This document shows positions 11,550-48,860 of a DNA stretch of 64,000 bases, one piece after another (position 1 is the first letter of the stretch; the number at the start of each line of letters is the position of its first letter). A program made the translations under genes and the position numbers. The notes under the pieces were generated by a model, which searched no databases, had not been told where the DNA came from, and worked only from the letters and a program-made list of their open reading frames with translations. Source of the stretch: Escherichia coli (lineage in GTDB: Bacteria; Pseudomonadota; Gammaproteobacteria; Enterobacterales; Enterobacteriaceae); assembly GCF_030384885.1 (NCBI RefSeq), contig NZ_CP128613.1; one strand, 5' to 3'.

Positions 11550-11879
11550 CTACGATTTGCGCATGCTTAACAGTGCGCCGATAAAAATACCTACCGCAGC
11601 TGCTGTACCCACGCTACACCAGGGTCTTTCACGAACAAAAGAATCCGCGCAGCCAACGGCATCGCGCGCGGCTTGCTGGACGCGAGTACGACCATGCATT
11701 CGCGCTCTGGTTTCTTTCAGTAGAGCCTGCGCTTTACTACGAGCGGCTTCGGCTTCCCCTTTGGCGTCGCTGCCCCAGGACTTCAATACAGACTCGAGAC
11801 TGTCAGCCAATTGATTGACATCATTCTGGATATCCTGCACGCCATCATCAACGTCGTTGCGGTTCGGTCGGTTAAACAT
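11550..11879 (-). CDS. ygaM: DUF883 membrane-anchored ribosome-associated protein YgaM
   Basis: Protein MFNRPNRNDVDDGVQDIQNDV... with C-terminal TM segment; start chosen at the internal Met of the 113-aa ORF. Confidence 0.8.
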   Translation of the reverse strand: MFNRPNRNDVDDGVQDIQNDVNQLADSLESVLKSWGSDAKGEAEAARSKAQALLKETRARMHGRTRVQQAARDAVGCADSFVRERPWCSVGTAAAVGIFIGALLSMRKS

Positions 11880-34346: not shown

Positions 34347-35114
34347 TTATTGTTTTATTATCTTAACGTGCGCCGTTCCTCCATTGACTTTTTCGAAATC
34401 TTGGAACAAGGCAGGGGCATCTTGAGTTACAATATCGTAAAGTTTTTCTGAAACTGTTCTCATTTCATAGTCACCCTGTATTGCTCCTCTCATTTCGAAG
34501 AAGTGTCGAATTGCGCGAGCATTTGCTGTGACGATTATTTTTGTCTCGGTTGCATTAGGCAATATAGAGCGAGAAGCGCTTCTTAAGGCCCGCATTTTTT
34601 CTTTTTTGTTCTCATACGATTGGTTTTCACGGATTTTTTTCAAGGATTGCTTATAAAAATCCAGACTACTTTCAATATGTTGGCACCATGACTTAAACAA
34701 TTCTGGGTCATTTTTTACTTCTATAGGGGCTACGAATTCAGCATCGGATTCATCATGATACTGTTGGGATAACTGGCTATATGAAAAACCAGCTCTATGC
34801 CGAACTAGCTGGTGTGTAAATGCACGAGATACCCCAGTAATTAAAAAGGTCCAGTTCAAATGTTCTAAGACACTTTCATGCCCTTGAATAATTAAATTGT
34901 TGATATATTGACTTGTAGTCCGTGGAGACTGCTTATCCTCTCCAAAAGACATATAACATAGCCTGCCAGCGGCCTCTACCAGAAGCTCAGCTTCGGTCGC
35001 CTGCCCTTTGCGAACCCATTGCAATGATGATGTGTTTAAAAAATCATCAAAAACATTACTTTCAAATGAAGGGTGTGATATGCATTTTACTGATAAATCA
35101 GAGATTTTTATCAT
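34347..35114 (-). CDS. ThyX-family (flavin-dependent thymidylate synthase, Thy1 domain) homolog
   Basis: 255 aa; signature RHR-x8-S (LVRHRAGFSYSQLSQQY), upstream GHESVLEH and downstream TANARAIRHFF blocks align with canonical ThyX (GHETPFEH ... WFRHRIASYNELSGRY ... TVNARSLMNF). Low GC. Confidence 0.75.
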   Translation of the reverse strand: MIKISDLSVKCISHPSFESNVFDDFLNTSSLQWVRKGQATEAELLVEAAGRLCYMSFGEDKQSPRTTSQYINNLIIQGHESVLEHLNWTFLITGVSRAFTHQLVRHRAGFSYSQLSQQYHDESDAEFVAPIEVKNDPELFKSWCQHIESSLDFYKQSLKKIRENQSYENKKEKMRALRSASRSILPNATETKIIVTANARAIRHFFEMRGAIQGDYEMRTVSEKLYDIVTQDAPALFQDFEKVNGGTAHVKIIKQ

Positions 35115-35116
35115 TT

Positions 35117-35902
35117 TTACTCCCGTATAGCTTTTGGGGTGCTTACTTTAGCATCAACCTTTGGTTCGTTTGATTTAGCATTTTTTAGTAATTCAACGGT
35201 GCTTTTTAGGCTATTTATTTCATTTTGTTGAACTTTTATTGTTAATTCAAGATCTTTTGTACTACTGACATTACTGGATACTATTTGAAATAAGAAAGGA
35301 ATTGCTAGGGTTATCAACGTTAGCATTAAGGCTGCTATCGCAATTATAAAGCCAGTTTTTTTCGCAATGATTTTATTGATTTCTTTCGGAAGTCGTTTAT
35401 CAAGTCCTGCAAAATCCTTTCCCATTCTAGAAAGTTGATCATCATCCAATTTATTTACGATTTTTCCTTGGTAACCTTTAGTCGGTATTATTGTTTTAAA
35501 TAATAACATTCGGGCTACTGCTGAATTTTGTGTCAATGAGAATGGTTCTTTTGACATATTTACAAGATATATTGAAATTATGCCATTATATCCAGGGTCA
35601 ATATGCCCTGGATTCGTCATGATAATTCCATTTTTTGATAGTGTGTTTCTTGGAAATATTACACCAGCTAAATTTTTTGCAAGTTGGAATTTTTCATTTA
35701 ACTCTAATATTACAGTTTCCCCTGGCATCAGGATATGGTTGTTACGTGTTTTTTTATTGTCTTGACAGTCTGGTATATGTATTGTTTTTACAGAGAGATC
35801 AATGCTTGCAGATTGAACTTTAAATGTTCCATTTAATACCGTTAATGGATCAAAAATGTTGCCTCGCTGAATTTCATCATTGATTTCTATTTCAGACAGC
35901 AT
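35117..35902 (-). CDS. dCTP deaminase/dUTPase-superfamily protein with C-terminal transmembrane helix and coiled-coil tail
   Basis: 261 aa; residues 1-150 align with E. coli Dcd (ASIDLSVKT / LMPGETVILEL / GHIDPGYNGIISIYLVNMSKEPFSLTQNSAVARMLL vs ATVDVRLGN / LHPGELALAV / [34 protein letters not shown]); C-terminal hydrophobic segment GFIIAIAALMLTLITLAIPFLF then K/E-rich tail. 2-bp gap to the thyX-like gene. Confidence 0.75.
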   Translation of the reverse strand: MLSEIEINDEIQRGNIFDPLTVLNGTFKVQSASIDLSVKTIHIPDCQDNKKTRNNHILMPGETVILELNEKFQLAKNLAGVIFPRNTLSKNGIIMTNPGHIDPGYNGIISIYLVNMSKEPFSLTQNSAVARMLLFKTIIPTKGYQGKIVNKLDDDQLSRMGKDFAGLDKRLPKEINKIIAKKTGFIIAIAALMLTLITLAIPFLFQIVSSNVSSTKDLELTIKVQQNEINSLKSTVELLKNAKSNEPKVDAKVSTPKAIRE

Positions 35903-35928: not shown

Positions 35929-36942
35929 TTATAAATTAGCCAGAGGGTTTTTTATTACTGCATCTTCAAGATGCTCTGGGGAAAAATGTGCATAAATCAT
36001 AGTCATTTTTATATCAGAGTGGCCTAAAATATCTCGTAAAACCAAAATATTACCACCATTCATCATAAAATGGCTGGCGAATGTATGGCGCAGAACGTGA
36101 GTGCATTGGCCCTCTGGTAACTCAATGTCAGCTCGCTTTACTGCTCGTTCAAAGGCTTTTCTGCAAGGAGTGAATAACTTCCCTCTGTTCTTAGGGAGTT
36201 CGTCATACAGATCCTGAGATATCGGCACGGTACGGTTTTTCTTGCCCTTAGTCTTGGTATAGGTGATCCGGTATTTCGATAACTGATGGCCCTGCAGATT
36301 TTCGGCTTCACTCCAGCGCGCGCCGGTGGCCAGGCATATTTTTGTAATTAAAAGTAGACTGGGGCTTTGAGAATCAGCACAGGCATCCAGCAGACGTTTA
36401 ATTTCTTCCGGGGTCAGGAACGACAGTTCACCCTCAGCAATTTTAAATGTTGGCAGCCCGGCAAGCGGATTGGGGGCTGACCAGTGGCCCAACTTTTTCA
36501 GTGTGCCAAAAACAGATGATAGGTTGCGCTGTTCAAGGTTTACAGTGCGGGGCTTAACGGGCGACATAAGCGTGCCCTCTTCATTTCGCACTTCACCTTT
36601 TAGCCGCGCTTCTCGGTATTTAGTAAAATCACCGGCTGTCAGCTCTGAGGCGATGGGATCGCCTAGACCATTACAGATAATTCTAAGTTTCGCCATGAGG
36701 CGCTTGGGGTCTGCGAGTGTTTGACCATACAGGGAATACCACTGCTCAATTAATTCTGATAGGTGTCGCCGATCTTCCTTTTCCCCCAGCCATGGCTTTT
36801 TGTTCACTTCTTCCATTGTGAAGCTTTCAAAAGCAATGGCTTCGCCTTTCGTAGCAAATTGCTTACGCACGCGCTTGCCATTGCGTCCATGGGGATAGCA
36901 CTCGCACAACCATTTACCGTTTGGCTGTTTTCTGACAGTCAT
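35929..36942 (-). CDS. int: Tyrosine recombinase, P2/186-type prophage integrase
   Basis: 337 aa; N-terminal GRNGKRVRKQFATKGEAIAFE, catalytic-region motifs (LATGARWSEA, HVLRHTFASHF, MIYAHF) typical of P2-like integrases. Confidence 0.85.
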   Translation of the reverse strand: MTVRKQPNGKWLCECYPHGRNGKRVRKQFATKGEAIAFESFTMEEVNKKPWLGEKEDRRHLSELIEQWYSLYGQTLADPKRLMAKLRIICNGLGDPIASELTAGDFTKYREARLKGEVRNEEGTLMSPVKPRTVNLEQRNLSSVFGTLKKLGHWSAPNPLAGLPTFKIAEGELSFLTPEEIKRLLDACADSQSPSLLLITKICLATGARWSEAENLQGHQLSKYRITYTKTKGKKNRTVPISQDLYDELPKNRGKLFTPCRKAFERAVKRADIELPEGQCTHVLRHTFASHFMMNGGNILVLRDILGHSDIKMTMIYAHFSPEHLEDAVIKNPLANL

Positions 36943-36944
36943 GT

Positions 36945-37577
36945 TTAGATACTCTTTATTACTTTGACTGCACGCCCAATAACTTCCACATCATCAGTAG
37001 AGCACTCGAAAGACGCTTCATCTTGATTTACTACAATCTTATTGCCGGGAATCCGCATGATTTTTGCAACAATAATCATTCCATCAATATTGATAAGCCA
37101 GAATCCATTGCTGACCTGTTTAATTGATTTATCGATGAGATAACAATTAGTAGGGGTTTCTAAGAACATCAATTCTTCATAATCTGCAGGTAATATGCTG
37201 TGGTCTAGGAAAATCTCTTCATCAATACTGAGTTGTCCATTCTCCAGGGTTCCTTTAGGAATAGCTGGAGTTATGAGTTTGGATAACGGTTTAATTGCTT
37301 GTTTGTTCTCATTATGAGAACTTTTCTCAGGCTCAGCTCCTCCTTTCATGCTTCCCTGTCCTGTAGCTAACCAAAGCAACGAAACACCGGTTTCTAGTGC
37401 GCACTGAATTATCCAGTCAGCAGGAAAGCTGTCACGTAACACTCTGTTTGCCATAGTGCTTTTTGAGACATTCAGGTGCTCGCTTAATGCCTGCTTAGTT
37501 GTGAATCCATAAGCCTCAAGCAGCCTTTCAATAGCTGCCTTACCTCCCGTATCGGAACCCATTCTGATGTTTAACAT
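36945..37577 (-). CDS. Phage CI-like repressor (186 CI-type HTH)
   Basis: 210 aa; HTH region LSEHLNVSKSTMANRVL; immediately upstream of and overlapping int start (cI-int operon), divergent from apl/cox-like gene. Confidence 0.7.
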   Translation of the reverse strand: MLNIRMGSDTGGKAAIERLLEAYGFTTKQALSEHLNVSKSTMANRVLRDSFPADWIIQCALETGVSLLWLATGQGSMKGGAEPEKSSHNENKQAIKPLSKLITPAIPKGTLENGQLSIDEEIFLDHSILPADYEELMFLETPTNCYLIDKSIKQVSNGFWLINIDGMIIVAKIMRIPGNKIVVNQDEASFECSTDDVEVIGRAVKVIKSI

Positions 37578-40072: not shown

Positions 40073-40926
40073 GCACCATCCTGAAATGGGCGGGAAATAA
40101 AACTGCCATAATGTCCGAACTGAAAAAACATCTTCCTGCTGGCCCGCGACTGGTTGAACCTTTCGCGGGTTCCTGTGCTGTGATGATGGAGACGGATTAT
40201 CCCAGCTATCTGGTTGCGGATATTAATCCTGATTTAATCAACCTCTATAAAAAGGTTGCCGCTGATTGTGAATCGTTTATATCTCGCGCCAGAGTTTTAT
40301 TTGAGATCGCAAACAGGGAGGTGGCTTATTACAACATAAGGCAGGAGTTTAATTACTCAACTGAAATTACTGATTTCATGAAAGCGGTATATTTCCTGTA
40401 TCTCAATCGTCACGGTTACCGTGGTTTATGTCGCTATAACAAGAGCGGGCATTTCAACATTCCCTACGGTAATTATAAAAATCCGTATTTCCCTGAAAAA
40501 GAAATTCGCGCATTTGCAGAAAAGGCCCAGCGAGCAACGTTTATCTGCGCCAGCTTTGATGAAACGCTGGCGATGTTGAAGGCGGGGGATGTGGTGTATT
40601 GCGATCCGCCGTATGACGGTACGTTTTCCGGCTATCACACTGACGGCTTCACTGAAGATGACCAGTATCACCTGGCATCTGTTCTTGAACATCGGTCATC
40701 AGAAGGACATCCGGTCATTGTTTCTAACAGTGACACATCCCTGATCCGTTCGCTGTATCGCAATTTTACTCACCACTACATCAAGGCAAAACGCAGCATC
40801 GGTGTGGCAGCTGGCGAGGGTAAATCAGCAACAGAAATCATTGCTGTTTCCGGGCCGCGCTGCTGGGTGGGATTTGATTATTCGCGTGGCGTGGATAGTT
40901 CTGCCGTGTACGGAGTACGTGCATGA
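40069..40926 (+). CDS. DNA adenine methyltransferase (Dam-like, D12 class N6-adenine MTase)
   Basis: Protein [25 protein letters not shown]...EPFAGSCAV... and DPPY catalytic motif (VYCDPPYDG). Confidence 0.85.
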
Positions 40927-43337
40927 GTCATGCCGATATGAACAACTGCTGCGGCTTTAACGAAGCTGCCGCATCGTTCTCATGGAACAGCCCGAAAAAG
41001 GCCATTAACCCTTATCTGGACCCGGCGGAAGTTGCGCCGGTTTCTGCGCTTTCAAACCTGATCACTCTGTACGCTACTGATAACGAGCAGGAACAACTGC
41101 GCCGCGAGGCACTGAGTGATCAGGTCTGGGAGCGTTATTTCTTTAATGAATCCCGTGATCCTGTCCAACGCGAAATGGAGCAGGATAAGCTCATTAGCCG
41201 GGCAAAGATGGCGCATGAGCAGCAGCGTTTTAATCCAGACATGGTCATTCTGACTGACGTCAACGCCCAGCCTTCCCATATCAGCAAGCCGCTGATGCAA
41301 CGTATTGAATATTTCAGCAGCCTGGGCAGGCCAAAGGCTTATTCCCGCTATTTGCGTGAGACGATTAAGCCATGTCTGGAACGACTGGAGCATGTACGCG
41401 ACAGCCAGCTATCTGCATCTTTTCGTTTTATGGCAAGCCATGAAGGGCTGGACGGTCTGCTGATCCTGCCTGAAATGAGTCAGGATCAGGTGAAACGCCT
41501 GTCTACCCTTGTCGCTGCGCATATGAGCATGTGTCTTGATGCCGCTTGTGGTGATTTGTACGCCTCCGATGATGTTAAGCCAGAAGAAATCCGCAAGACA
41601 TGGGAAAAGGTGGCTGCAGAAACCCTGCGACTGGATGTCATACCGCCTGCGTTTGAGCAACTCCGCCGGAAAAGAAACCGCCGCAAACCTGTGCCTTATG
41701 AACTCATTCCGGGTTCGCTGGCGCGTATGCTGTGCGCCGACTGGTGGTATCGGAAATTATGGAAGATACGTTGCGAATGGCGGGAAGAGCAGTTGCGTGC
41801 TGTCTGCCTGGTCAGCAAAAAAGCATCTCCCTATGTCAGCTATGAAGCCGTGATGCATAAACGTGAGCAGCGCCGTAAGTCGCTGGAGTTTTTCCGTTCT
41901 CATGAACTGGTGAACGAAGACGGCGACACGCTGAACATGGAGGATGTGGTAAACACCAGCAGCAGCAACCCGGCGCATCGCCGCAACGAGATGATGGCCT
42001 GTGTTAAAGGCCTAGAGCTTATCGCGGAAATGCGTGGTGACTGCGCCGTTTTCTACACCATCACCTGTCCGTCACGTTTCCATTCCACGCTAAATAACGG
42101 CAGGCCAAACCCGACCTGGACCAACGCGACAGTAAGACAAAGCAGCGATTATCTGGTCGGCATGTTTGCTGCATTTCGTAAGGCTATGCACAAAGCCGGG
42201 TTGCGCTGGTATGGCGTGCGGGTGGCTGAGCCGCATCATGACGGCACAGTTCACTGGCACCTGTTGTGTTTCATGCGCAAAAAAGACCGCCGCGCCATTA
42301 CTGCATTGTTGCGTAAGTTTGCCATCCGTGAAGACCGCGAGGAGCTGGGCAATAACACGGGGCCACGCTTTAAGTCTGAGCTGATAAACCCGCGCAAAGG
42401 AACGCCGACAAGCTACATTGCGAAATATATCAGTAAGAATATTGACGGGCGTGGTCTGGCTGGCGAGATCAGTAAGGAAACGGGTAAATCCCTGCGTGAT
42501 AACGCTGAATACGTTAATGCCTGGGCGTCTCTGCATCGTGTTCAGCAATTCCGCTTCTTTGGCATTCCGGGGCGTCAGGCTTACCGTGAACTGCGATTGC
42601 TGGCTGGTCAGGCGGCAAGGCAACAGGGTGACAAAAAAGCAGGTGCGCCGGTACTGGATAACCCGCGCCTTGATGCCATCCTGGCTGCTGCTGATGCTGG
42701 TTGTTTTGCCTCCTACATCATGAAGCAGGGCGGCGTACTGGTTCCCCGCAAATATCACCTCATCAGAACCGCTTATGAAATCAACGAAGAGCCGACCGCC
42801 TATGGCGATCACGGTATTCGTATTTATGGCATCTGGTCACCCATTGCAGAGGGCAAGATCTGCACTCATGCAGTGAAGTGGAAAATGGTTCGTAAGGCCG
42901 TTGACGTTCAGGAGGCGGCAGCCGACCAGGGCGCTTGCGCCCCTTGGACTCGTGGCAATAACTGTCCCCTTGCTGAAAATTTGAACCAACAGGAGAAAGA
43001 TAAATCAGCTGATGGGGACACCAGAACGGACATTACCCGCATGGATGACAAGGAGTTGCACGATTACCTGCACAGTATGAGCAAAAAAGAGCGCCGGGAA
43101 CTGGCTGCAAGGTTACGCCAGGTGAAACCGAAACGGCGTAAAGACTACAAACAGCGAATTACAGACCATCAGCGACAGCAGCTCGTCTATGAACTGAAGT
43201 CCAGGGGATTTGATGGCAGTGAGAAAGAAGTCGATTTGCTCCTTCGCGGTGGCAGTATTCCGTCAGGAGCAGGCCTGCGTATTTTCTATCGGAACCAGCG
43301 TCTGAAGGAAGATGATAAGTGGCGGAACCTGTATTAA
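40923..43337 (+). CDS. Phage replication initiation protein (186/P2 gene A-type endonuclease)
   Basis: 804-aa protein following Dam in early operon; size and position match P2/186 protein A. Confidence 0.7.
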
Positions 43338-43688: not shown

Positions 43689-43922
43689 ATGCGCATTGAA
43701 ATAATGATCGATAAAGAGCAGAAGATTAGCCAGTCTACCCTGGACGCCCTTGAATCCGAGCTTTACCGCAATCTGCGCCCCCTGTATCCCAAAACGGTAA
43801 TCCGTATCCGTAAAGGTAGCTCTAACGGTGTGGAACTGACCGGACTGCAACTGGACGAAGAAAGAAAACAAGTGATGAAAATTATGCAGAAGGTGTGGGA
43901 AGACGACAGCTGGCTGCATTGA
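43689..43922 (+). CDS. DinI-family protein
   Basis: 77 aa MRIEIMIDKEQKISQSTLDALESELYRNLRPLYP...VWEDDSWLH, resembling DinI (MRIEVTIAK...DALAGELSRR...W...). Confidence 0.7.
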   Translation: MRIEIMIDKEQKISQSTLDALESELYRNLRPLYPKTVIRIRKGSSNGVELTGLQLDEERKQVMKIMQKVWEDDSWLH

Positions 43923-44713: not shown

Positions 44714-45038
44714 GTTTCACGCTTACTGAGTATGTTACGATTTTGCACATTCTGCATAAACGCGCATGTCTATGCTGCATGAGATCGCATGATCGTTTGA
44801 GGATCTTTTGTGTTAAGGCCCGCCAGTTCTGGCGGGCTTTTGCGTAGATCATGCAGGTGCATGAAAACCACTACATAAAGCGGGCAGGCGTGGCGGGGAT
44901 ACGAGCGCGCGTTATGACAAATAGATGATTAGCCTGATTTATTCACAGCTGTATAAATGATCACCTTGTAATTAGGTAAGTAATGTCTTCTATTATCATT
45001 GATTTGATAGGATTAATCTGTTTTTTGAGGATTAGAGG

Positions 45039-47375
45039 ATGATTGAAGAGGTAGTTATTGACAAAGTAGGCTCATATAATGGCCCTACTCAGCTTTTACA
45101 TGGGCTTTCTAAATTTAACTATTTATATGGAGCTAATGGTGCAGGTAAAACAACTATAAGTAAAATTATTAATGACCCTGAACAATATCCAACATGTCCG
45201 ATTAAATGGAAAAATAATATATCTTTAATAAGCTACGTATATAATAAAGATTTTGTTGAAAGAAATTTTAGTCAAGATAAAATTAAAGGTGTATTTACCC
45301 TTGGTAGCGATCTTAAGGAGGATGAAGAGAAATTAATATCTCTTGAAGAAGAAAAAAATAAGCTAATAGAATCTATTATAGCAAAGGAAAAGCTAATAGA
45401 TGGTGGTGATAATATATTAGGCGTTGTTAAACAAATCGAAGACCATGAAAAATCTTTTAAAGATTCATGTTGGAAGCAAAAAGTAAAACATGATAATGTG
45501 TTCTCAAAGGCTTTTGAGGGATTAAGGAATAGTAGTGAAAAATTTAAAGCTAGAGTGTTGGCTGAGTATGAAAATAACACATCAGAAGTTTGCTCAATAG
45601 CAGAGCTAATTGAGAAAGCAAAAATTGTTTTTTCTACTGAATTGACATCACATGTATCAATTACAATTCCATCCTTCAATGGGATAGATGATATTTTGAG
45701 TAGGGAGATTTGGAGTGAGCGTATTCTAGGGAAAAAAGACGTTAGTGTTTCAGACTTAATTACAATGCTCAATAACAGTGATTGGGTTAAGGAAGGTTTA
45801 ACATATTTCAGTAAATCTAATCCCAAGTGCCCATTCTGCCAGCAGGATGTAAATGATAATATATTTGATAATCTATCATCATATTTTGATAAAACATATG
45901 AGTTAAAAAAAAGAGAAATCGATGCATTGGTTTTACAATATGAACATCAACTTAATAATATCTTGCAGGCGATAGATGATATAAGGGCGATTAAATCTCC
46001 ATTCATAAATTATGAAGTGTTTGAGGATAAGGCTAAGATAGTATTATCTGAATTAAACAAGAATTTTGAATTGGCAAAAAATAAACGCAATTTTTTAAGT
46101 GAATCAGTTCATTTTAGTGACTTAAGTGAAGTTGTTGATGATTTTATTTCTTTTTTGAATGATTCAAATCTATTGATAGATAATAATAACAAAATACACA
46201 GTAATAGAAAGGTAGAGGCTAGTAATCTTTCTAATCAGATATGGGCATATATCGTAAAGGTGGAGTTAAAGTCTGAAATAACTTCTTACCGTAGCGAATC
46301 TGATAAATTTAATAGGAAGTTACAAGGGCTTAAATCTGGGTTAGAGGAAGACAAAAAGAAGTTAATGTTAAATGCTTCGGCTATTGAGGCAATTGAGTCT
46401 AATAAAACCAGTACTCTTCCAACTATTACAAAAATTAACAAGATTCTGGATTCTTATGGCTTCAAAAATTTTTACTTAAAACCCTCCGAAGATAAAAAGC
46501 ATTATATGATAGTGAGAGATAGTGGAGATAATGCTCGTACAACCCTTAGCGAGGGAGAAAAGACATTTATCACTTTTTTGTATTTTTATAGCCTTGTTAG
46601 AGGGAGTGATAATGCATCAGGTGTTTTAGATGATCGTGTTGTAGTATTTGATGATCCAATTTCAAGTTTAGATAGTGATATTCTGTTTATTGTAAGTTCG
46701 TTGATTAAAGATTTAATGGAGGATGTTCGTAAGGATGAAGGAAATATTAAGCAAATTATATTCCTTACACATAATATTTATTTTCATAAAGAGTTGACTT
46801 TTAATACTAAAAGATCCGGTAATCAAGCAATGAAAGAGGAGACTTTTTGGATTGTAAGGAAAAAAGGGAAGGTCTCATATCTTGAAAAGTGCGAATCAAA
46901 CCCAATAAAAACGTCTTATGATTTGCTCTGGTGCGAATTGAGAAGAACAGATATTAATAATAATACTATACAAAATACAATGCGAAGGATTTTGGAGAAT
47001 TACTTTAAGATATTAGGTGGGATGGATATTAGGAAGCTTGAATGTCATTTTTATGGTGATGAAAAAATCATATTTAAATCTTTAGTGTCATGGATTAATG
47101 ATGGTTCTCATTTTGCAGGTGATGATCTTTATATGAATTTAGATACGGAGTCTGTGCAAAAATATTTAATTGTTTTTCAGAAGATATTTGAGTGTAGTGA
47201 GCATACTGCCCATTACAAAATGATGATGGGTGAGTTTTATAGACCGTTAAATGAGTCACTTCATCTACAAGATGAGTTTGATATTGATGATAGTGCGAAT
47301 GATGAGTATGCTTCGTCAAAAATTGAGATAGAAGATGGAATAAACACATCTCTACATAGTAATACATATTTGTAA
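45039..47375 (+). CDS. PrrC/RloC-like ABC-type ATPase (AAA_13-like) with CxxC motif and C-terminal putative HEPN-like domain
   Basis: 778 aa; Walker A GANGAGKTT, Walker B VVVFDDPISSLD, H-loop-like FLTHN, long K/E-rich coiled-coil insert containing CPFC; C-terminal domain with RKLECH (R-x4-H) and RRILE (R-x3-E) motifs; very low GC. Confidence 0.65.
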   Translation: MIEEVVIDKVGSYNGPTQLLHGLSKFNYLYGANGAGKTTISKIINDPEQYPTCPIKWKNNISLISYVYNKDFVERNFSQDKIKGVFTLGSDLKEDEEKLISLEEEKNKLIESIIAKEKLIDGGDNILGVVKQIEDHEKSFKDSCWKQKVKHDNVFSKAFEGLRNSSEKFKARVLAEYENNTSEVCSIAELIEKAKIVFSTELTSHVSITIPSFNGIDDILSREIWSERILGKKDVSVSDLITMLNNSDWVKEGLTYFSKSNPKCPFCQQDVNDNIFDNLSSYFDKTYELKKREIDALVLQYEHQLNNILQAIDDIRAIKSPFINYEVFEDKAKIVLSELNKNFELAKNKRNFLSESVHFSDLSEVVDDFISFLNDSNLLIDNNNKIHSNRKVEASNLSNQIWAYIVKVELKSEITSYRSESDKFNRKLQGLKSGLEEDKKKLMLNASAIEAIESNKTSTLPTITKINKILDSYGFKNFYLKPSEDKKHYMIVRDSGDNARTTLSEGEKTFITFLYFYSLVRGSDNASGVLDDRVVVFDDPISSLDSDILFIVSSLIKDLMEDVRKDEGNIKQIIFLTHNIYFHKELTFNTKRSGNQAMKEETFWIVRKKGKVSYLEKCESNPIKTSYDLLWCELRRTDINNNTIQNTMRRILENYFKILGGMDIRKLECHFYGDEKIIFKSLVSWINDGSHFAGDDLYMNLDTESVQKYLIVFQKIFECSEHTAHYKMMMGEFYRPLNESLHLQDEFDIDDSANDEYASSKIEIEDGINTSLHSNTYL

Positions 47376-47424: not shown

Positions 47425-47965
47425 TTAGTTAAGCTCATATGGAGAAAATTCTATAAGTTTCTCCCCGAGCCATGCGTTTATTTCCATAAATCGTTTTTGC
47501 AAAGGAATTAATTCATTTATCACAAAAACCTTACTAGCCTTCTCCACATCCCCAAACCCCCCAACATTATTAGGCATTATCCCCATCATTTGCGGCGGCA
47601 CACGGTGTGCCGCCATCATGTCGTCCCGGCTCACGTTCTTGATATTCAGAAACTCATCCTTCGCCGCGACTTCTGACAACGGGATAATCTGAAGCCCGTC
47701 CTTTTTGCCGTTAGGAGAGTACATAAACAGGTTGCGGAAGTTGCCTGGCCCTTTGGCACTTTTCATTGCGTTGCGGAGGTTGTTCACATCTTCTTGGTTC
47801 TGTGCGGCATCGGTCATGTACATGATGAAACCTGCATGGCTGCCGTTGATGTAATACTTACGGCGGAACAGTGTGGCGGACTCGTTGAGCAGGGCTGACG
47901 GGATGGCAGAGAGATAACCTGGCAGGCCGTAGATCTCCTGGTTGATGTCCGGTTCCGCCCTTAAT
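47425..47965 (-). pseudogene. Phage portal protein (P2 gpQ-like), 3' fragment only
   Basis: C-terminal portal-like sequence (...FRNLFMYSPNGKKDGLQIIPLSEVAAKDEFL...); reading frame extends upstream without start until sequence character changes near 47965. Confidence 0.6.
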
Positions 47966-48153: not shown

Positions 48154-48354
48154 ATGAAGTTTGTTGCGCCAGAACAGGCACCGGAACAGGCGGAAATCAT
48201 CAGAAACACGCCGTTCTGGCCTGATGTGGACCTGTCGGAGTTTCGCAGTGTCATGCGCACTGACGGCACGGTGACGCAGCCGCGTTTAAAGCAGGTTGCG
48301 CTGTCGGCAATTTCGGAGGTCAACGCACCGATACGACCATTTGCATTGATGTAA
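48154..48354 (+). CDS. Hypothetical small protein in prophage remnant (66 aa)
   Basis: ORF MKFVAPEQAPEQAEIIRNTPFWPDVDLSEFRSV... preceded by AGGAG RBS; identity not recognised. Confidence 0.4.
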   Translation: MKFVAPEQAPEQAEIIRNTPFWPDVDLSEFRSVMRTDGTVTQPRLKQVALSAISEVNAPIRPFALM

Positions 48355-48497: not shown

Positions 48498-48542
48498 TGG
48501 TGGAGCTGGCGGGAGTTGAACCCGCGTCCGAAATTCCTACAT
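48498..48542. repeat. attR: ssrA 3'-terminal att core
   Basis: TGGTGGAGCTGGCGGGAGTTGAACCCGCGTCCGAAATTCCTACAT, repeated at 34140-34183. Confidence 0.85.
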
Positions 48543-48860
48543 CCTCGGTACTACATGCTTAGTCAGTCTTTACATTCGCTTGCCAGCTGCGGACGGACAC
48601 GCCACTAACAAACTAGCCTGATTAAGTTTTAACGCTTCAACCCCAGGCAGGGCTTCCACGCGATCTCTTTTGGGTTTGACCTCTCTTGATCCCCGTCCTA
48701 AGAGCGGAGGCTAGGGAGAGAGGGCTCTAAGCAGGTTATTAAGCTGCTAAAGCGTAGTTTTCGTCGTTTGCGACTATTTTTTGCGGCTTTTTACGAGGCC
48801 AACCGCCCCTCGGCATGCACCTTGGGTTTCGCAAATCCCGTCGAATCCAGAATCAGCCCC
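48498..48860 (-). ncRNA. ssrA: tmRNA (SsrA)
   Basis: Reverse complement matches E. coli tmRNA from 5' GGGGCTGATTCTGGATTCGACGGG to 3' ...GGGTTCAACTCCCGCCAGCTCCACCA, including the tag-coding region. Confidence 0.95.

Follow-up and report, generated by a model that had tools for sequence, protein, structure and literature searches.

The 64,000-nucleotide stretch of Escherichia coli DNA analysed here (contig NZ_CP128613.1; referred to as the window) contains the remnant of a P2-type prophage, which carries a long gene of the AAA_13 family next to its cohesive-end (cos) site. The gene is an intact, uninterrupted open reading frame (ORF) of 778 codons with an ATG start. Its guanine-plus-cytosine (GC) content is 0.306, whereas the 64-kb window has 0.476 and the neighbouring gpA gene 0.528; with so low a value it looks like acquired cargo. 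A preliminary description of this DNA, made from the sequence alone, had reported a 778-residue product and a very low GC content, and both are borne out exactly. The same description regarded the product as an ATPase of the PrrC/RloC type, and it is the likeness to the RloC anticodon nucleases that is considered here.

The genes of the P2-type prophage are, in order, an integrase gene (35929..36942), a CI repressor gene (36945..37577), a CII-like gene and a Dam methylase gene followed by gpA, a DinI-like gene, the AAA_13 gene and a remnant of the portal gene (Table 1). The flanks first described as replication and DinI genes on one side and a portal remnant on the other are therefore those of gpA, the DinI-like gene and gpQ. 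Starting with the portal N-terminus, the rest of the prophage is lost, except for a 58-residue fragment of gpL (ORF 48154..48351, corresponding to the first ~58 gpL residues with 94% identity). The remnant abuts the 3' end of the tmRNA gene (48498..48860, minus strand), and the integrase gene is located at the far end of the element, not beside ssrA. This arrangement is shared by no complete E. coli genome in the collection.

The core of the P2/186 cos site, GGCGWGGCGGGGA, has a single match in the window (44887-44899), and the core together with its flank aligns with the right and left ends of P2 DNA (cosR and cosL). In P2, tin and old are located between orf91 and cosR, and the interval from cosL to the Q stop codon is 187 bp long (AF063097). 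The window carries a 2.5-kb low-GC cassette with the AAA_13 gene inserted in the cosL-Q interval. An unrelated ORF with a lipobox fills the stretch between the DinI-like gene and cosR that corresponds to the true site of tin and old. The preliminary description had assigned the gene to the hotspot equivalent to tin/old. The assignment to the P2 A-Q hotspot stands, since the gene lies between gpA and gpQ beside cos and intact prophages show the same layout, but strictly speaking the site is not that of tin and old, because the cosL-Q interval in which the gene is found is across cos from them.

Family placement, conserved motifs and predicted structure

Comparison with the AAA_13 and PrrC profiles, which the preliminary description had proposed as a check, supports a PrrC/RloC-like ATP-binding cassette (ABC) ATPase at the sequence level. 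The Pfam AAA_13 profile (PF13166) matches residues 10-718 over model positions 2-713 of 713 with an E value of 6.7e-164, far beyond chance, and the PADLOC hidden Markov model (HMM) of PrrC matches residues 459-703 with an E value of 2.5e-11. The top PADLOC family is PDC-S06 (PDLC04890), a candidate single-gene system, which is covered at model positions 1-725 of 732 (E 1.5e-266). RefSeq names the protein 'AAA family ATPase', and the matching PHROG, 2801, is annotated 'unknown function'. Database searches returned hundreds of full-length relatives at 42-45% identity, several of which are labelled 'wobble nucleotide-excising tRNase' by JGI; COG and UniProt give this label to relatives at 35-45% identity. 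A Foldseek search of AFDB50 with the AlphaFold2 (AF2) model of the protein gave full-length matches to entries named 'CR006 P-loop domain' and 'Wobble nucleotide-excising tRNase', with E values from 4e-80 to ~1e-49. Sequence and profile searches of the PDB found no solved relative of PrrC or RloC. Weak PADLOC matches to Lamassu LmuB, PARIS AriA, MADS mad3 and AbiLi were rejected as generic likeness among ABC/SMC heads, because their scores are at least 800 bits under that of PDC-S06 and no cognate partner genes are present.

Conservation was assessed in an alignment of 121 homologous sequences, in which a residue is called invariant when it is the same in every sequence that covers the column. 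The Walker A, Walker B, H-loop-like LTHN, CPFC and RRILE motifs were all found where the preliminary description had placed them, with VVFDDPISSLD of the Walker B motif and D-loop corresponding to residues 535-545, and their key residues are invariant (Table 1). To these are added the ABC signature LSEGE and an invariant G-S-H, neither of which had been mentioned before. The PrrC/RloC-type motifs previously proposed for the C-terminal domain fared unequally. RRILE contributes the invariant R649 and E653, whereas RKLECH is retained in few sequences (Arg in 9%, His in 12%); the R-x4-H of the latter is fortuitous, because R665 and H670 are poorly conserved. The candidate catalytic histidine is H691, 37 residues after E653, in the context W-[IV]-[NH]-D-G-S-H. 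The C-terminal domain contains further invariant residues (N646, I651, Y655, H725, M728 and M729) as well as the nearly invariant R650 (120/121, Lys in one sequence), D695 and D696 (119/121 each).

The full-length AF2 model has a mean predicted local distance difference test (pLDDT) score of 78.7. It shows an ATPase head composed of an N-terminal lobe (residues 1-90) and a C-terminal lobe (residues 460-618), which are separated by the long helices of the insert. The invariant CPFC is located in the low-confidence apex, near the midpoint of the insert. An ATPase split by a long coiled-coil insert with a CxxC motif, as originally described, is thus upheld, with zinc binding as a prediction. A search of the PDB with the model gave as best matches Rad50 of the Mre11-Rad50 complex, SMC heads, Lamassu LmuB, PARIS AriA and retron PtuA (E 2e-7 to 1e-3), and the hook region has a weak profile match (E 0.11) to the crystal structures of the Pyrococcus furiosus Rad50 zinc hook (1L8D and 6ZFF). 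The head is followed by an all-helical domain and by an acidic tail with a SAND motif, which the AF2 model shows as disordered over residues 740-778. The tail and its SAND motif are kept only in the enterobacterial clade borne by P2 and P4 elements, and are missing from the relatives at 42-45% identity.

Distribution, the cos flank and neighbouring genes

The gene is present in 25 of 5426 complete E. coli genomes, and 20 of these copies are full length with 98-99.9% identity. The copy in the window is 99.9% identical to WP_040072399, which is itself encoded in an intact P2-like prophage. Three E. coli copies were inspected; each belongs to an intact P2-like prophage, and each prophage occupies a different chromosomal site. 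In all three, gpA and the DinI-like gene precede the AAA_13 gene and the portal gene follows it directly, with one extra hypothetical gene in between in one case. Four E. coli loci have almost the same sequence over the ~280 bp that precede the gene and include cos. A relative with 62% identity occurs in Enterobacter P2-like prophages, and another, with 51% identity, is carried by P4-like satellites of E. coli, where psu/cos and int flank it at the P4 hotspot of Rousset et al.; in both, cos is located 130-250 bp upstream of the start codon. The clade is found ~130-250 bp inside cosL in all eight P2-like and P4-like loci, that is, the window and seven related loci, whose cos sites are at positions 11849 (L001, L002 and L004), 1030 (L005), 5 (L006), 5856 (L007) and 476 (L008).

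Other genomes have KAP NTPase, DarTG or ComF-like cargo on the right-end side of cos, with the AAA_13 gene still on the left-end side. The hotspot thus consists of two halves that assort independently, which fits the recombination at cohesive ends suggested by Rousset et al. (PMC9122126). Relatives with 43% identity are solitary genes at the end of a prophage or in the chromosome; the lack of a conserved neighbour across these contexts fits a self-contained switch. No hsd or other restriction-modification genes were found in the contexts of the window gene and its relatives. The Enterobacter phage ENT4 has an AAA_13 relative with 25% identity on the old/tin side of cos, transcribed away from cos.

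Between cos and the gene, the sequence CTGTATAAATGATCACCTTG (44949..44968, ~80 bp upstream of the start codon) is common to the E. coli and Enterobacter P2-like copies despite diverged surroundings. A conserved TATAAA upstream of the gene, which the consensus scan did not call, is recognisable by eye, and CTGTATAAATGATCACCTTG may provide the -10 element of a promoter just inside cosL.

Table 1. Features of the prophage remnant around the AAA_13 gene, with residue numbers referring to the 778-residue protein.
Feature	Position	Strand	Remarks
gpA replication endonuclease	40923..43337		
DinI-like gene	43689..43922		
Lipobox protein, 225 residues	44036..44713	+	signal peptide (…ILTGC); phrog_1353, function unannotated
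Terminator-like hairpin GGCCCGCCAG-ttct-CTGGCGGGC, then TTTT	44818..44845	+	right-end side of cos; kept in L001, L002 and L004
cos site GGCGTGGCGGGGATACGAG	44887..44905	+	133 bp upstream of the AAA_13 start codon
RloC-like AAA_13 gene	45039..47375	+	778 residues, 30.6% GC
Walker A GANGAGKTT, residues 31-39	45129..45155	+	G31, N33, G36, K37 and T38 invariant (120 sequences; one gapped)
Helical (coiled-coil-type) insert splitting the ATPase head, residues ~93-454	45315..46400	+	AF2: long helices; low-confidence apex 233-283; closest solved folds are coiled-coil-bearing heads (Rad50, SMC, LmuB)
CPFC, zinc-hook-type CxxC, residues 264-267	45828..45839	+	C264, P265, C267 and Q268 invariant (121/121)
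ABC signature (C-loop) LSEGE, residues 503-507	46545..46559	+	S504, E505, G506 and E507 invariant
Walker B and D-loop VVVFDDPISSLD, residues 534-545	46638..46673	+	D538, D539, P540, S542, S543 and D545 invariant
H-loop LTHN, residues 576-579	46764..46775	+	T577, H578 and N579 invariant
All-helical C-terminal domain, residues 626-733	46914..47237	+	putative anticodon-nuclease domain; AF2; PrrC HMM reaches residue 703
RRILE, residues 649-653	46983..46997	+	PrrC/RloC-type Arg-x3-Glu; R649 and E653 invariant (121/121)
RKLECH, residues 665-670	47031..47048	+	not conserved: R665 11/121, H670 14/121
G-S-H, residues 689-691	47103..47111	+	G689, S690 and H691 invariant
Disordered acidic tail, residues 734-778	47238..47372	+	SAND motif 752-755; pLDDT <40; 11 D/E vs 2 K/R
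Inverted repeat TTGCCAGTA...TACTGGCAA	47387..47416		separates the stop codons of the AAA_13 and portal genes, which converge here
Portal (gpQ) remnant, C-terminal 132 residues only	47425..47823	-	100% identity to residues 212-343 of a 343-residue portal

The lipobox ORF on the other side of cos was weighed as a possible partner gene for AAA_13, an idea that was rejected. It is regarded as a separate cargo gene, because it is absent from every other locus with the AAA_13 gene; its product may be a surface or superinfection-exclusion factor.

Two minus-strand genes adjoin the P2-type integrase gene on its outside. They encode a ThyX-type, FAD-dependent thymidylate synthase (34347..35114; TIGR02170, 154.8 bits against a cutoff of 87.9) and a protein with a dCTP-deaminase/dUTPase fold that scores under all curated cutoffs (35117..35902). 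PADLOC has no match for either protein. To our knowledge, thyX is not a usual gene of E. coli. The pair could constitute a nucleotide-pool or DNA-modification cargo module. Farther to the left of the remnant, ~370 bp beyond the thyX gene, a plus-strand gene (29324..33979) encodes a 1551-residue autotransporter adhesin similar to Ag43 and AIDA-I, with a beta-barrel match of E 2.6e-97.

Proposed activity and alternative explanations

The gene most probably encodes a single-polypeptide anticodon nuclease of the RloC family, carried as defence cargo of a P2-type phage. It fits this assignment because of its matches to the AAA_13, PDC-S06 and PrrC profiles, the invariance of its motifs, its Rad50-like head and its residence in the hotspot. 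Membership of the family, integrity of the motifs, single-gene organisation and location in the hotspot are all observed, and the gene keeps company with defence cargo such as KAP NTPase and DarTG.

In the RloC proteins of Geobacillus kaustophilus and Acinetobacter baylyi, the nuclease is activated when the Rad50-like head hydrolyses ATP, which requires DNA; mutations of the hook short-circuit this switch, agents that induce double-strand breaks turn the protein on in vivo, and two successive cuts remove the wobble nucleotide (PMC2610378, PMC3458546, PMC3874168). From analogy with these proteins we infer expression, a trigger, tRNA targets and a defence phenotype for the window gene. The RloC-like protein would be latent in the P2 lysogen. 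DNA ends or breaks produced by infection or genotoxic stress would stimulate the ATPase through a switch that includes the zinc hook, and the activated ATPase would unmask the nuclease, so that the anticodon loops of tRNAs are cut and the wobble nucleotide is perhaps excised. Translation would then halt and the infection abort, which would protect the lysogen population and the prophage by the same abortive logic as is now reported for Old, the classical occupant of the hotspot, and for PARIS.

Alternatively, the protein could belong to the same superfamily of ATPases and act in defence, but in a clade that has diverged from RloC and with an effector that does not cleave tRNA anticodons. It would instead bind or cut other RNA or DNA, or recruit a host factor. 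The putative HEPN-type C-terminal domain of the preliminary description is relevant here. It persists as the all-helical domain of residues 626-733 with R649, E653, S690 and H691, but the canonical Rx4-6H motif of HEPN domains (PMC3710099) is absent: positions -4 to -6 relative to H691 are N, I/V and W, and none of them is an arginine. H295 and R349, which are essential in PrrC, have no evident counterparts by position (R349 falls on S684 by offset), whereas R650, D695, D696 and H725 are invariant or nearly invariant extras. A fold search with the C-terminal domain did not confirm a HEPN fold, and PADLOC lists the family only as the candidate PDC-S06 and not as a named system. Because the arginine of Rx4-6H is absent and H295 and R349 are without evident counterparts, catalytic competence is plausible and not assured. 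Against a diverged effector, the pattern R-x3-E...N-x2-S-H and its spacing match residues shown by mutagenesis to be essential in PrrC and RloC, and the alignment to the PrrC HMM runs through the region of the C-terminal domain. We consider a diverged effector unlikely.

The missing HEPN arginine and PrrC counterparts weigh also against the assignment as an RloC-type nuclease, together with the following points. The NCBIfam profile scan found no model that names the 778-residue protein. The likeness to the RloC proteins of G. kaustophilus and A. baylyi (COG4694) rests on the published motif definition and on the labels of relatives; a 158-residue fragment of G. kaustophilus RloC, rebuilt from the corrupted optical character recognition text of Fig. 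S1 of PMC2610378, gave no match in a protein database search. A promoter scan from cos to the ATG found nothing convincing, and the prophage in the window is a remnant, in which expression of the gene is presumed. The systems cloned and tested by Rousset et al. (PMC9122126) include no AAA_13 entry.

A role in the DNA transactions of the phage itself, as a Rad50/SbcC-like protein acting at the cohesive ends, in replication or in packaging, would account for the Rad50-like head with its hook and for the position of the gene, always ~130-250 bp from cosL in P2-like and P4-like elements. It is nevertheless very improbable, because the gene is rare (25/5426 complete E. coli genomes), replaceable and low in GC, and has no partner of the Mre11/SbcD type. 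Most P2-like phages lack the gene, including P2, where only the 187 bp separate cosL from Q, and the C-terminal domain is of the PrrC type, which Rad50 and SbcC do not have (PMC2610378). A silent leftover of a decayed prophage, contributing nothing to the host, would agree with the loss of all but the gpL fragment beyond the portal N-terminus, with the absence of a called promoter and with a remnant arrangement unmatched in complete E. coli genomes, but is very improbable in view of a full-length ORF 99.9% identical to copies in intact prophages, an intact conserved upstream region including the TATAAA element, and the annotation of P2 (AF063097), in which old and tin are expressed from their own promoter in lysogens.

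Within the assignment to the RloC family, the enterobacterial clade borne by P2 and P4 elements might be a specialised cos-linked variant characterised by the acidic SAND tail, a proposal that we regard as rather doubtful. The SAND tail could act as a DNA-mimicking auto-inhibitor or as an element that binds the trigger, setting the threshold of the head for free DNA ends such as those of incoming linear phage genomes. The position at the cos flank could account for an exchange of the cassette between helper phages and their satellites through recombination at cohesive ends.

Comparison with known systems

RloC was defined by Davidov and Kaufmann (2008; PMC2610378) as a protein of 658-897 residues with PrrC-like ABC motifs, a coiled-coil insert bearing a CxxC zinc hook, and the triad Arg-x3-Glu-x36-52-His, in which a serine often precedes the histidine. 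The protein of the window has each of these elements. Its ATPase motifs comprise Walker A, the signature, Walker B with the D-loop, and the linchpin histidine; the helical insert that splits the ATPase (predicted helices 93-454) has a central CxxC that shares the C-x-F-C form of the RloC hook (CPFC, 264-267); R649-x3-E653-x37-S690-H691 falls within the published R-x3-E-x36-52-(S)H; and the size of 778 residues and the homology to PrrC (HMM E 2.5e-11) also agree. Like RloC, the gene is solitary, with no restriction-modification neighbour. Unlike RloC, the enterobacterial clade adds an acidic SAND tail of ~45 residues and is linked to cosL, whose flank it occupies in P2-like and P4-like elements, and, in contrast to the RloC description, there is no arginine within 4-6 residues of the catalytic-type histidine. 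One of the RloC orthologues in Fig. S1 of the same paper has the hook CPFCQ...YFDDTF, and its Table S1 lists an orthologue of 738 residues from E. coli APEC O1 (YP_852004) with the neighbours 'phage replication initiation, capsid'.

The protein is also collinear with PrrC, the tRNA-Lys anticodon nuclease of E. coli (EcoPrrC), in the ATPase motifs LS[KE]GE, DD, SSLD and TH and in the nuclease residues R, E, N, S and H. With the EcoPrrC numbering of Meineke and Shuman (PMC3025547), E173 of LSKGE corresponds to E507 (offset 334), D215 and D216 to D538 and D539 (offset 323), D222 of SSLD to D545 (offset 323), H251 of TTH to H578 (offset 327), R320 and E324 to R649 and E653 (offset 329), and N352, S355 and H356 to N687, S690 and H691 (offset 335). 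By contrast, PrrC consists of ~396 residues without a coiled-coil or hook insert, whereas the window protein contains an insert of ~360 residues. The prrC gene is always located within a type Ic hsd/prr locus that silences PrrC, and the window gene has no hsd genes nearby. The LARP motif of PrrC was not found in the window protein, and neither were H295 and R349.

Related proteins have been described in prophages. Anantharaman et al. (2013; PMC3710099) reported ABC-HEPN proteins of the APECO1_4465 type in prophages and proposed that they exclude other phages. Rousset et al. (2022; PMC9122126) showed that the gpA-gpQ hotspot holds anti-phage systems; their P2-hotspot system #5, 'AAA_13, RloC-like', has 420 occurrences, and their Table S5A lists WP_106509408, 98% identical at the DNA level, in the P2 A-Q hotspot. 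The APECO1_4465/system #5 family and the window protein share the Pfam family, the P2 A-Q hotspot and the CPFCQ hook, but their identity is only 25% across the first ~400 residues, in an alignment that matches the hooks. The clade of the window is therefore a separate lineage from the abundant APECO1_4465/system #5 family, and it is much rarer, being found in the 25 genomes mentioned above. According to a 2025 preprint, a PDC-S06 ATPase of E. coli is probably a genuine defence protein.

P2 Old and PARIS, for which abortive tRNA cleavage with TOPRIM nucleases has been reported (PMC11464382; bioRxiv 10.64898/2026.07.10.737580), are likewise cargo of the P2 and P4 hotspots in which an ABC ATPase is coupled to a nuclease. 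The effector is a TOPRIM domain in these systems and a PrrC/RloC-type helical domain in the window protein, and the ATPases of Old and PARIS have no long hook-bearing insert; the resemblance is thus a functional analogy only.

The gene opens no new category. Proteins of this kind were already described in 2008, 2013 and 2022 by the three studies cited above. Its points of interest are the strict linkage to cosL in helper and satellite versions, the acidic SAND tail specific to the clade, and the possibility of testing RloC-type defence directly in E. coli. So far, the antiviral role of RloC is deduced mainly from biochemistry and from the response to DNA damage, and an E. coli prophage that carries such a protein would make it convenient to test this defence against a panel of coliphages and to determine which phage signal triggers the Rad50-like sensor. 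If active, the protein would be another ATPase-coupled tRNA nuclease among the cos-adjacent cargo of P2 and P4, beside the TOPRIM tRNases Old and PARIS, and would lend support to the idea that the abortive-infection modules exchanged by these hotspots are equivalent in function although their nuclease folds are unrelated.

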